DNA of 64,000 bases. Origin: Escherichia coli (lineage in GTDB: Bacteria > Pseudomonadota > Gammaproteobacteria > Enterobacterales > Enterobacteriaceae). The stretch lies in NCBI RefSeq assembly GCF_024298765.1, contig NZ_CP101210.1. One strand, given 5' to 3'. Every line of letters begins with the position of its first letter. Positions within the stretch are counted from its first letter, which is position 1. Below are positions 31,728-35,046 of the stretch, piece by piece. A program made the translations under genes and the position numbers. The notes below the pieces were generated by a model. That model was not told where the DNA came from, made no database searches, and saw only the letters and a program-made list of their open reading frames with translations.

Positions 31728-32129
31728 GTGGCAAAAGTTTTTACACAAGAAGAGCGGGAAAAAATTAAAGGGCAGGTTGTTGAACTCGTACGCCGGAGTG
31801 GGCGTGAGACGTTACGGCAACTGGAAGTCAAGACAGGTGCGACAAGATATCTGATGAGCGTTCTCGCAAGAGAGCTGGTTGCCAGCGGCGATGTATACAA
31901 CTCTGGTTACGGGTTATTCCCGTCTGAACAGGCGCGTAAGGACTGGCAAAATGCCCGTAAAAAGCTCTCAAGGGCAAAGCTGAAGAAACCATCTGCGGTT
32001 GATCCGGACCTTATCTGGTCATTACCTGACGGAGAAATACGTCGCTACGACAGGCGTCAGAACATAATCTGCCGCGAGTGCCGGAAGAGTGAAGTTATGC
32101 AGCGCATACTGGCATTTTATCAGGGATAA
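31728..32129 (+). CDS. Hypothetical basic protein (133 aa), GTG start
   Basis: GTG preceded by AAGGGGGA RBS; C-terminal CxxC; no family recognised. Confidence 0.45.
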   Translation: MAKVFTQEEREKIKGQVVELVRRSGRETLRQLEVKTGATRYLMSVLARELVASGDVYNSGYGLFPSEQARKDWQNARKKLSRAKLKKPSAVDPDLIWSLPDGEIRRYDRRQNIICRECRKSEVMQRILAFYQG

Positions 32130-32662
32130 TGTTAGATATTTTAGACGTTACTAGATTAAAAAGCATTAGTTCAGGAGTGAATTGACATTCTCATTTTTCA
32201 TGGCACAGGGTAGATCTGGCGTGGTTGTCCGCTTTGTGCCAACAGCGGACGTTACTAACGAAACTGTGAGTTAAAAACGGGAGCTGGTCACCTCCATCCC
32301 GCGAAATGGAATTCAAAAATGCCCTCATGTACGGTACTTCTAGTCTGATGTGAGCATTTTCGTGGATTTTTTCGAGCCACTCCAACGAATGATTACATTC
32401 AGTTTCGGGCACTAAAACGTCATAAATCCGCAAGTTGAGGAGTAGCGATCAGCCAATTGGTTAAAAAACAGCTTTAATTCCCTTTTTCAAGCAGGCTCCT
32501 TGTCGCACGTCTGGTGCATCCAATTCATTTCAGTTACCCTGATGCCATACTGGCACGGACTAGCTCTCTTAATTGGCGCTGGTTTGTTAACCTTGTCCGC
32601 TGTCGGGTCTTTGTAAGTTGTAATTCCTAAACTAGCATAATTTTATTATAAGGCCTCTTACT

Positions 32663-33688
32663 ATGCACATTTTATCTGTTTCAAAAAAGGAAGTTGGAAG
32701 AGCTGGGGATAGATTAGTTTCTCAGTTTGGTACAGGTGAAAAATATAAAGAGGAAGATGTACAAATTCTTCATGAGTGGAGGATGTTGCATTTATATCCT
32801 TTAAGTAAAATACAATTTTATATGGAAAGAGAGGCTATTTCCTTAAACAAAAATGCGTTACTATCCTCTAGAATTAAGAGGATGCCTTCCATTGTTACTA
32901 AGCTTTCTAGATTTCCTGATATGAAGTTAAATAAGATGCAGGATCTTGGTGGGTGCCGGGCTATTTTAAATAATCTGGATCAAGTGTATGATTTAGTTAA
33001 TAAAATAAAATCATCTAAATTCTCACATGAACTAGTTAGAATGGATGATTACATGATAGACGTGAAAGATTCTGGTTATAGAAGCTTTCATATGGTCTAT
33101 TCATTCCAAAATAAAAAATTTCCATCTTTAAATGGGTTGCGCATTGAAATGCAAATAAGAACAGCTATTCAACATAGCTGGGCTACAGCAGTTGAAATGG
33201 TTGGTTTGTTTCGAAAGGAATCATTGAAATCTGGTTTTGGTGATGCAAGATGGCTTAGGTTTTTTGAATTGGTATCAGAGCTTTTTTATAAACTTGAGTA
33301 TGAAAAAGAACCATCTGGGAGTTATATAAAAATATCAGAAGAATTAAGTTATTTATCCGTCGAGTTGAATGTTTTCGATATATTAGCTGCTTACAATGCC
33401 GTAGTTAGCCATATTGAGGGTAGCAAAAAATATGATAAAGGACTTTGCATAATTGTTGTTGATACCATAAAGCGGAATATAAATATAAAGAGCTTCGAAA
33501 ATCACAATCATGCGAAGGCGGCAGAAGCTTATGTCGAGTCTGAAAAATACTGCGCGGAAAATAAAGGCTGTGAAGTGGCTATGGTTTCTGTTAGTTCAAT
33601 TAGTGAATTAAAAAATGCATATCCTGCTTACTTTTTAGATACGAAAACTTTTTTAAATTATCTCAGTAGGTATGTTTTTATAAAATAA
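32663..33688 (+). CDS. RelA/SpoT-homologue synthetase-domain protein (341 aa); candidate fused toxSAS toxin-antitoxin
   Basis: All four synthetase motifs present: RIKRMPSIVTK (RxKxxxSxxxK), DLGGCR (DxxGxR), GYRSFH, EMQIRTAIQHSWA (ExQIRT...W). About 130-aa C-terminal extension, no adjacent partner ORF, and much lower GC than the flanks. Confidence 0.75.
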   Translation: MHILSVSKKEVGRAGDRLVSQFGTGEKYKEEDVQILHEWRMLHLYPLSKIQFYMEREAISLNKNALLSSRIKRMPSIVTKLSRFPDMKLNKMQDLGGCRAILNNLDQVYDLVNKIKSSKFSHELVRMDDYMIDVKDSGYRSFHMVYSFQNKKFPSLNGLRIEMQIRTAIQHSWATAVEMVGLFRKESLKSGFGDARWLRFFELVSELFYKLEYEKEPSGSYIKISEELSYLSVELNVFDILAAYNAVVSHIEGSKKYDKGLCIIVVDTIKRNINIKSFENHNHAKAAEAYVESEKYCAENKGCEVAMVSVSSISELKNAYPAYFLDTKTFLNYLSRYVFIK

Positions 33689-34121
33689 AAAATGTTATCT
33701 GGAGTGGTCTGAATTCTACTAACTTAGTTTTTTCAGACCGCTTCTGACCACAATGGCCTGTGAGGTTCTGCTGCTAGTCAACATAAAATAACAAAGCCGG
33801 CAGGTGGTGGTTGTTGTAAAGTTATTCAATGACATTCATGGAGGCTTAAGCGAATTATTTGTCCCTGGTCGGTATGGTGGCAACAGCTTGTTGCGAGAAT
33901 TTGGCTAATTTGGACTGACTTCCGCTCCTTGCTCAAAGCGGACTAGAAGGTTAGCTTGTGTCGGACTTTGCGTATTAAAAGAAGTGCTGGTGGTGACTAG
34001 TGGTTGAGCCCCATTTCCACAGAAAAAATCAGAGAAACTATACCCAATAGTTGTATTGAATCACTGACGAGACAGCCTCATATTCATCAGGACTGGTGTA
34101 CGTCCAATACAGGAGGTTGTG

Positions 34122-34211
34122 GTGCTGGTTCTCAAATGTGCGCTGGCTATTACGGCTGTAATGGCGATTTATTGTCTTGCTATTGTTCTTATGGATCGCC
34201 TTTCTGACTGA
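34122..34211 (+). CDS. Possible 29-aa hydrophobic micro-ORF
   Basis: AGGAGG five nt before a GTG; encodes VLVLKCALAITAVMAIYCLAIVLMDRLSD; may be spurious. Confidence 0.2.
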   Translation: MLVLKCALAITAVMAIYCLAIVLMDRLSD

Positions 34212-34422
34212 TTTCATATTGGCGAGGTAAAGGTAGTTAAGTAGAATGGCTGCGGGTGCTTGAGGCTATCTGCCTCGGGCATGAACACCAAAGGCAGATA
34301 GAGAAAAGCCCCAGTTAACATTACGCGTCCTGCAAGACGCTTAACATTAATCTGAGGCCAATTTCATGCTAGACACATGTAGGTTAGCCTCTTACGTGCC
34401 GGAAGGCAAGGAGAAGCAGGCT

Positions 34423-34578
34423 ATGAAGCAGCAAAAGGCGATGTTAATCGCCCTGATCGTCATCTGTTTAACCGTCATAGTGACGGCACTGGTAACGAGG
34501 AAAGACCTCTGCGAGGTACGAATCCGAACCGGCCAGACGGAGGTCGCTGTCTTCACAGCTTACGAACCTGAGGAGTAA
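34423..34578 (+). CDS. hokD: Hok-family type I toxin (51 aa) with overlapping mok-like frame starting at 34366
   Basis: MKQQKAMLIALIVICLTVIVTALVTRKDLCEVRIRTGQTEVAVFTAYEPEE matches recalled HokD; AAGGAGAAG RBS; upstream in-frame extension resembles mok. Confidence 0.85.
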   Translation: MKQQKAMLIALIVICLTVIVTALVTRKDLCEVRIRTGQTEVAVFTAYEPEE

Positions 34579-34648
34579 GAGACCCGGCGAGGGAGAAATC
34601 CCTCGCCACCTCTGATGTGGCAGGCATCCTCAACGCACCCGCACTTAA

Positions 34649-34670
34649 CCCGCTTCGGCGGGTTTTTGTT
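34649..34670 (+). terminator. Rho-independent terminator after hok
   Basis: CCCGC-ttcg-GCGGG hairpin followed by TTTTTGTTTTT. Confidence 0.6.
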
Positions 34671-34794
34671 TTTATTTTCAACGCGTTTGAAGTTCTGGAC
34701 GGTGCCGGAATAGAATCAAAAATACTTAAGTAGCGCGCAGGGATAAGAGGGATGGTCCCTTAAAGGGGAGAGCTAATTATCCGGAAGGATTCTG

Positions 34795-35046
34795 ATGATG
34801 AACATCGAAGAACTGCGTAAAATTTTTTGTGAAGATGGCCTCTATGCTGTGTGCGTTGAAAATGGAAATCTTGTTAGTCATTACCGCATTATGTGTTTGC
34901 GAAAGAATGGGGCTGCGTTAATTAATTTTGTGGATGGTCGAGTGACAGACGGATTTATCTTGCGCGAAGGTGAGTTTGTCACTTCATTACAGGCACTGAA
35001 AGAGATCGGAATAAAAGCAGGCTTTTCAGCTTTTGCAGAAGAATAA
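34795..35046 (+). CDS. rem: Rem-like prophage protein (83 aa)
   Basis: 83-aa ORF between hokD and ydfU, as in Qin; identity assigned by position and length. Confidence 0.7.
   Translation: MMNIEELRKIFCEDGLYAVCVENGNLVSHYRIMCLRKNGAALINFVDGRVTDGFILREGEFVTSLQALKEIGIKAGFSAFAEE

Follow-up and report, generated by a model that had tools for sequence, protein, structure and literature searches.

A complete hok/sok locus and, beside it, a probable gene for a small membrane peptide of an unnamed family in an Escherichia coli prophage

We analysed a stretch of 64,000 nt from Escherichia coli (RefSeq assembly GCF_024298765.1, contig NZ_CP101210.1; hereafter the window) and describe here its hok locus and a short open reading frame (ORF) of 29 codons, the micro-ORF, that lies immediately 5' of it. 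The two are independent genes that adjoin in the early-right region of a Rac/Qin-type lambdoid prophage. With a probability that we put at roughly two in three, positions 34122-34211 are a genuine gene for a 29-residue single-pass membrane peptide, a member of an unnamed family of Escherichia and Shigella, and the hok/sok locus next to it is complete and independent. The hok/sok half of this finding is correct, is already known and adds nothing new; the one new item is the unnamed, unannotated family of small membrane proteins. A first-pass annotation of the same sequence had placed here a toxSAS gene, a hok locus directly downstream of it, and an AGGAGG five nt before the GTG that opens a hydrophobic 29-codon ORF, and all three are present. 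Other loci that carry the micro-ORF are referred to below by L numbers or, for the virulence plasmid of Shigella flexneri M90T, as pWR100. The features on the micro-ORF side are:

34122-34211, plus strand: micro-ORF, 29 codons plus TGA, predicted single-pass membrane peptide (from its intactness in 164/165 loci, codon-change counts and hydropathy)
34056-34084, plus strand: candidate promoter, -35 TTGAAT (34056-34061), 17-nt spacer, -10 CATATT (34079-34084) (promoter scan, 8/12)
33926-34043, no strand assigned: far leader, a flank conserved in E. coli prophages and without counterpart in pWR100, L130 and L176

The Shine-Dalgarno (SD) sequence AGGAGG occupies 34111-34116, the TGA lies at 34209-34211, and the product would be VLVLKCALAITAVMAIYCLAIVLMDRLSD, with a grand average of hydropathy of 1.74 and a best 19-residue Kyte-Doolittle mean of 2.58. 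The ORF listing opens the frame one codon earlier, at GTG 34119; most relatives have GTC at that position, and 34122 is therefore the conserved start. The SD-plus-start motif occurs six times in the window where 4.2 occurrences would be expected, and a count of six is also reached in 22 of 100 shuffles. On its own the motif is not beyond chance, and the micro-ORF is credible only through comparative evidence. No second copy of the peptide was found within the window.

Comparison across loci points to a coding sequence under constraint. In 164 of the 165 loci that cover it the micro-ORF is intact, always at exactly 29 codons and starting with GTG (ATG in pWR100), and in the same proportion of loci (164/165) it is free of insertions and deletions (indels), whereas the leader has them. 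Parsimony over 37 distinct haplotypes counts 41 synonymous and 35 non-synonymous changes, where 31% synonymous would be expected (p = 3e-5; dN/dS about 0.39). The changes at codon positions 1, 2 and 3 number 22, 13 and 41, and the replacements are mainly conservative (V/I, A/V, M/V, D/E, L/F). Two overlapping frames, 34004-34207 on the plus strand and 34038-34217 on the minus strand, were ruled out, since variation is greatest at the third codon position of the micro-ORF frame. The first-pass annotation had made its case for the ORF depend on conservation among related prophages; the ORF is conserved there and shows constraint of the coding type. We infer that the peptide is translated, is located in the membrane and is non-toxic at its native level. 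Disruptions are rare: a 2-nt deletion breaks the micro-ORF in L141, and two IMG/VR loci have hok leader in its place, which we read as a ~190-bp deletion of the ORF and the hok promoter.

The micro-ORF sits in a separate conserved block, ~33926-34215, that occurs in about a third of complete E. coli genomes (1758/5426); among the 40 matches listed for this block, none has an annotated feature beneath it. In strain MB56 and 17 other loci the block occurs without hok, and the homology ends just past the micro-ORF stop. Only four sequenced phages carry the micro-ORF (mEp460_ev081, Evi, Tritos and HannyBb), and tblastn of two divergent alleles against phages returned these four or none. Among 1.84 billion representative proteins, a profile search retrieved 17, all of the micro-ORF family, and these include divergent alleles: MLAALKGFVAILAVVAIYCLVVVLMDRLSD in L173, ...MEGALAVVAVVGVYCLVVFLMDRLGN in L174, ...LVLVLKGALAIAAVAVIYCLVIVLMDRIFE in L176 and MLIIKGVLAIVIVVAIYCLVVTLWERLSD. 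Divergent alleles keep the motif IYCL..LMDRLSD, and in four further lineages they keep (A/G)(I/V)YCL...L(M/W)(D/E)R..(D/N/E)-stop despite heavy synonymous divergence, the motif-keeping alleles being ~65-75% identical in DNA (by eye). When this motif was made degenerate and scanned against species-representative genomes, one true match was obtained, in E. albertii; 16 other matches, in unrelated taxa, were judged to be chance. The family thus appears, from these searches, to be confined to Escherichia and Shigella.

Outside prophages, tblastn found a 79%-identical copy, MLVLKGTLAIAAVMTIYCLIVVLMERFSD, on ~135 records of Shigella and enteroinvasive E. coli (EIEC) virulence plasmids (pINV). The pWR100 copy (NZ_CP037924.1, 90908-90997 complement; L171 3998-4087) lies ~260 bp 5' of icsP and has an ATG start, an AGGAGG and an intact ORF, and the adjacent hok leader is decayed and truncated. 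RefSeq leaves this copy without annotation and Prokka calls it a 'hypothetical protein'; scattered GenBank and Prokka annotations of the micro-ORF elsewhere read 'hypothetical protein' or 'membrane protein'. The family has no match in Pfam (even at E 10), NCBIfam, PHROGs or PADLOC. A full-text literature search for the peptide sequence gave no match, and nothing relevant came from searching for hokD in connection with small proteins or ribosome profiling.

The micro-ORF is probably read from a sigma-70 promoter of its own, the candidate at 34056-34084, and may also be transcribed by read-through from the phage early operon. Transcription from the candidate would start at ~34091 and give a short, open 5' untranslated region (UTR) of ~31 nt with a strong SD. 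Three other lineages retain its hexamers and 17-nt spacing (TTGAGT in pWR100, TTGAAG in L130 and in L176), while the spacers are 47% identical in pWR100, 59% identical in L130 and unrelated in L176, as one would expect if a sigma-70 promoter were at work here. Neither strand of the 290-nt block, when folded, has unusual RNA structure (z +0.49 and +1.36), and a search of 33900-34250 against Rfam found nothing except a minus-strand 'sok' match of 20 bits, which we attribute to the hok leader hairpin. On the minus strand, a promoter-like site at 34037-34064 (-35 GTGATT, 16 nt, -10 TATAGT at 34042-34037; predicted transcription start site (TSS) ~34030) overlaps the micro-ORF promoter in divergent orientation; it is conserved in pWR100 and not in L130 or L176, and cargo on the minus strand, for example PD-T7-1 in mEp460, might be transcribed from it. 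The mEp460 locus (L001, ~2580) has a 14-nt deletion in the far leader, corresponding to window positions 33978-33991.

Downstream of the micro-ORF, positions 34219-34674 are, judged by their sequence, a complete hok/mok/sok type I toxin-antitoxin (TA) locus, the full-length form of hokD, with the following parts:

34219-34247, plus strand: hok promoter, -35 TTGGCG (34219-34224), 17-nt spacer, -10 TAGAAT (34242-34247) (promoter scan, 9/12 matches)
34254-34674, plus strand: predicted full-length hok mRNA (Rfam leader match and fold; its ends are inferred)
34366-34578, plus strand: mok frame, 70 aa, in phase with hok and overlapping it (GAGG 9 nt 5' of the ATG)
34423-34578, plus strand: hok (hokD allele), 51 aa, MKQQKAMLIALIVICLTVIVTALVTRKDLCEVRIRTGQTEVAVFTAYEPEE (PHROG 251, NCBIfam, PGAP, K-12 alignment)
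34304-34374, minus strand: putative Sok-like antisense RNA, ~71 nt, spanning the mok start codon and SD (coordinates transferred by alignment from sokW of phage 933W)
34381-34409, minus strand: putative Sok promoter, -35 TTGCCT (34409-34404), 17-nt spacer, -10 TAACCT (34386-34381) (read from sequence)
34647-34674, plus strand: hok mRNA terminator, hairpin AACCCGC-TTCG-GCGGGTT (34647-34664) followed by a T run (terminator scan)

The hok -35 begins 7 nt past the micro-ORF stop codon, and the terminator scan found none between them. Homology of the hok module with most phages starts at ~34219-34237, which leaves the micro-ORF outside the module. The leader, 34254-34428, holds the Sok target and matches Rfam RF01794 on the plus strand over model positions 1-157 (117.1 bits against a gathering score of 59 bits; E 3.3e-27). 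That family is named 'sok', yet its 157-nt model stops at the hok AUG, and therefore it describes the hok mRNA leader carrying the Sok target. The transcript 34254-34672 (419 nt) has a minimum free energy (MFE) of -176 kcal/mol (z -7.8), and in the MFE fold the tac element at the 5' end (GGGUGCUUGAGG, 34254-34265) is base-paired with the 3' element fbi (CCUCAACGCACCC, 34628-34640), a closure known from the hok mRNA of plasmid R1. Leader match and fold place the hok features far beyond chance. The protein belongs to the Hok/Gef family, whose members are about 50 aa long and have an N-terminal transmembrane helix; it matches PHROG 251, 'MokW-like host killing' (2.8e-33), and the NCBIfam Hok subfamily (5.7e-13, under the curated cutoff of 73 bits); PF01848 is recorded for near-identical Hok products, and PGAP annotates hokD in strain 104, which is 100% identical. 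The mok frame is homologous to the annotated mokW of 933W and, by analogy, hok translation would be coupled to it. The putative Sok promoter differs from that of 933W in one spacer base and scores under the promoter-scan threshold. No second hok copy was found within the window. The 51-aa Hok ORF, the mok frame from 34366 and the strong terminator had all been seen by the first-pass annotation, whose view of an autonomous hok/sok-type module is borne out by the locus having its own promoter, Sok gene and terminator. The Tyr47 codon of Hok, UAC, is followed by G (UACG, 34561-34564), and the same motif occurs in 933W. The hok 3' UTR hairpin and terminator (34587-34668) resemble Rfam isrK weakly, with a match of 25.7 bits where the gathering score is 50, which is below threshold and is probably a generic resemblance to a hairpin plus terminator.

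By analogy with R1 hok/sok and with hokW-sokW of prophage Sp5, a stable hok mRNA would first be closed by 5' tac/3' fbi pairing and be untranslatable; 3' trimming would let it refold, making mok, and hence hok, translatable. The short-lived Sok RNA, running from 34374 to 34304 on the minus strand, would pair with the mok start region, block translation and trigger RNase III cleavage. Where Sok is not replenished, upon loss of the locus or prophage induction, Hok would enter the inner membrane and kill or lyse the cell. Expression and toxicity at this locus are expected from that analogy.

The closest studied system is hokW-sokW of 933W and the Sakai prophage Sp5, which is ~93% identical in DNA to the window module. 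The similarity takes in the hok promoter and leader, the start of mok, and the Sok gene with its promoter; in 933W hokW, mokW and sokW are all annotated at homologous positions. The prophage setting is shared as well, with replication genes on one side and the Q antiterminator on the other. The two differ at the Hok C-terminus (...VFTAYEPEE in the window, ...VFVDYESEK in 933W, deduced from the aligned DNA), and in 933W the terminator region and downstream genes are unlike those of the window and there is no upstream micro-ORF. hokW-sokW is an experimentally shown type I TA system, RNase III- and Hfq-dependent, that aids Sp5 lysis after mitomycin C, and both Hok toxicity and Sok repression have been shown for it (Takada et al. 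2021, PMC8621323). The hok/sok (parB) of plasmid R1 resembles the window locus in its mok/hok overlap, the cis-antisense Sok over the mok start, the tac/fbi closure and the Rfam leader match; it differs in being plasmid-borne, where the window locus is prophage-borne, and in its Hok sequence.

With hokD (relF) of the K-12 prophage Qin, the coding sequence is identical at every aligned base, the 3' UTR matches too, and rem, ydfU and ydfT downstream are common to both. In K-12, however, the homology begins only at ~34409, at the hok SD and directly 3' of relE, so that the hok promoter, leader, mok start, Sok and micro-ORF are missing and hokD directly follows relBE. The first-pass annotation had drawn this contrast with the K-12 relBE operon and had suggested comparison with other hokD loci. 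Of 5426 complete E. coli genomes, 4725 contain the hok module, with 11047 occurrences in all, and 3927 have no less than 80% of it, so that the untruncated form, which is that of the window, is the common one. The K-12 relBE-hokD arrangement is, as the alignments indicate, a 5'-truncated derivative of the common complete locus. Of two preprints considered, one on the Pas small RNA (sRNA) concerns other loci and has hokW only among its references, and a text search of another, on Hok diversity, gave no match on gene neighbourhood, 'upstream' occurring there in its methods.

E. coli strain 104 (NZ_CP029164) matches the queried stretch of the window at 100% identity, and the counterpart there is a Rac/Qin-type lambdoid prophage with the gene order ydaT-like, replication genes, DUF977, RelA/SpoT-domain protein, hokD, rem, ydfU (DUF968), ydfT (antiterminator) and lysis genes. 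Two genes to the left of the micro-ORF define its surroundings:

31728-32129: DUF977 gene, at the left end of a variable interval
32663-33688, plus strand: CapRel-like fused toxSAS, 341 aa (PDB 7ZTB/9ERV, PADLOC PDC-S33, Pfam RelA_SpoT)

Along its whole length the toxSAS protein matches PDB 7ZTB and 9ERV (E 2.6e-34; query residues 6-338 aligned to chain residues 15-370), 7ZTB being what we take to be the structure of CapRel(SJ46). It also matches the PADLOC candidate system PDC-S33 at 5e-119 and has a Pfam RelA_SpoT domain at residues 69-175. These matches identify the protein, by homology, as a CapRel-like fused toxSAS, probably a fused toxin-antitoxin protein of phage defence, and they agree with the toxSAS call of the first-pass annotation. 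The interval from the DUF977 gene to 33926 spans 1.6 to 6.7 kb among related prophages and holds PD-T7-1 in mEp460 and WCHEC035123, HigBA in L176, relBE in K-12, ORF6N/Ead or DUF551 genes in L173 and L174, and the CapRel-like gene in the window. The interval ~32130-33925 therefore looks like a defence/TA hotspot, with the micro-ORF and hok at the right border of its cargo slot.

Three alternatives to an independent coding gene have to be weighed, of which the type I toxin is the one that the first-pass annotation put forward. It had described two or three toxin modules within 2 kb, the third being the micro-ORF as a type I membrane toxin; its RNA antitoxin would then have gone unrecognised. 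Two toxin-type modules are indeed there, and the 29-aa, strongly hydrophobic peptide with its charged tail has the size and composition of Ibs, ZorO and TisB; it lies amid toxin modules (CapRel-like toxSAS and hok/sok here, HigBA or RelBE in relatives), persistently beside hok, and a minus-strand promoter-like site, with its -10 TATAGT at 34042-34037, is divergent to its promoter. Yet neither that site nor its transcript region is conserved in L130 or L176, no minus-strand promoter at or above the scan threshold lies within or 3' of the micro-ORF, and there are no direct or inverted repeats able to give a partly complementary sRNA. Duplexes of the micro-ORF mRNA with Sok or with the candidate divergent RNA are no better than those of shuffles. 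Whereas the hok mRNA folds with a z of -7.8, the micro-ORF mRNA has fold z values of -0.76, +1.25, -1.18 and +0.33 in four lineages and no common structure over the SD. A table of TSSs from differential RNA sequencing (dRNA-seq) of S. flexneri M90T carrying pWR100, a single data set from tryptic soy broth (TSB) at 37 C and an optical density (OD) of 0.3, lists no antisense TSS between 90219 and 91397 (PMC7132871, Table S3). No known type I toxin family in Pfam or NCBIfam is matched, and hhalign against Hok gives a probability of 0.5%. The minimal conserved unit of ~170 bp (promoter, SD and ORF) is retained between flanks of three unrelated kinds, which leaves no room for a separate antitoxin gene, and a predicted promoter of its own together with an open, strong SD makes a potent toxin unlikely. 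The size and hydrophobicity of the micro-ORF thus fit a type I toxin and the other defining features that could be tested failed; the third module of the first-pass annotation is not supported, and we regard it as quite improbable.

The comparators for such a peptide are the type I toxins Ibs, ShoB, TisB, ZorO, DinQ and Ldr and the inner-membrane regulators MgrB, AcrZ, MgtS and KdpF, all of which it resembles in size, in having one predicted transmembrane helix and a short charged tail, and in being missed by annotation. It differs from the toxins in that no RNA antitoxin and no structured mRNA were found, and from the regulators in that they have known partner proteins and none is known for it. 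We judge the micro-ORF product to be a moron-type small inner-membrane protein, one that may, for example, bind a larger membrane protein.

A functional tie to Hok, with the peptide as a membrane partner, modulator or immunity factor or with transcription and translation into the hok promoter tuning hok, is unlikely in our estimate, though several observations favour it. Four divergent alleles (the window type, L173, L174 and L176) each lie 100-250 bp 5' of an intact hok/sok, no terminator separates the micro-ORF from the hok promoter, and the loci without hok, pWR100 included, still bear remnants of the hok -35 region or leader. Against this, ~80% of hokD-type loci do without the micro-ORF (11047 places for hok and 2013 for the micro-ORF; 79 and 4 among phage records), and 18 loci and ~135 pINV plasmids keep the micro-ORF but have no hok. 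The hok module is, moreover, ~95% identical (by eye) beside micro-ORF alleles of 47-72% amino-acid identity, so that the two do not co-diverge; the linkage looks positional in these alignments and not co-evolved. A stronger form of the same idea, in which the peptide and Hok would together make up a two-peptide membrane module conserved in lambdoid prophages, the peptide being either a new kind of toxin whose restraint needs no RNA antitoxin or else a modulator of Hok, or immunity factor against it, that times membrane permeabilisation by Hok at induction, is one we likewise entertain with little confidence. A further alternative is that the micro-ORF is untranslated and its frame incidental. 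What is conserved would then be an element in the DNA or RNA, for instance the upstream portion of the hok promoter region or the flank at which the cargo slot recombines. In its favour, the non-coding leader is about as conserved as the micro-ORF among E. coli prophages, an SD-plus-start motif is expected by chance at about the observed rate, and no PGAP call of the micro-ORF occurs among the matches listed. The third-position and synonymous excess (p 3e-5) argues otherwise, however, as do indels that spare the micro-ORF and occur in the leader, amino-acid motifs kept across alleles of such diverged DNA, and a start codon and SD that are kept or improved (ATG in pWR100). Nor does a gene on the opposite strand fit the variable sites, since the excess would then hit its first codon position. 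We consider a non-coding origin of this conservation very improbable.

Several observations weigh against an independent, peptide-encoding gene. hok is adjacent in 148 of 166 informative loci, and treating the micro-ORF as independent may underrate that link. L173 and L174 lack the promoter, the micro-ORF there closely following an upstream gene, and the M90T table has no TSS at the predicted 91028(-), so that the promoter is not confirmed by it; the only sense 'novel transcript' TSS listed is 91318(-), 321 nt 5' of the micro-ORF, and the icsP TSSs are at 90709 and 90726 (PMC7132871). The codon-change counts come from a parsimony tree of a recombining 87-nt sequence, in which homoplasy raises the counts of synonymous and non-synonymous changes alike. 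The family is narrow, limited to Escherichia and Shigella, and much of its conservation therefore reflects recent common descent. As regards toxicity, our scans would miss a short cis-antisense RNA if its promoter were weak or not of the sigma-70 type, and small hydrophobic peptides are often toxic when overproduced, which leaves room for a toxin. Expression, translation and localisation of the peptide are, in every strain, deduced from the nucleotide record.

If the independent gene is accepted, the micro-ORF is under coding constraint yet absent from RefSeq annotation, Pfam, NCBIfam and PHROGs, while being carried by E. coli genomes at the frequency given above, by E. albertii and, near icsP, by Shigella and EIEC plasmids. 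It also marks the right border of a prophage slot with CapRel-like, PD-T7-1, HigBA or RelBE cargo. To name and test it would close a gap in annotation and could reveal whether prophage Hok has a protein partner; should the two-peptide module be real, the orphan pINV copy 5' of icsP would be a functional, never-studied small protein. The hok/sok part, for its share, shows only how the familiar K-12 relBE-hokD derives by truncation from the complete locus.

Beyond the hok terminator, just 3' of it and 5' of rem, lies a promoter-like site, TTGAAG-18 nt-TAGAAT (34687-34716). The rem gene itself, at 34795-35046, is a predicted gene of unassigned role that encodes 83 aa and belongs to PHROG 340.

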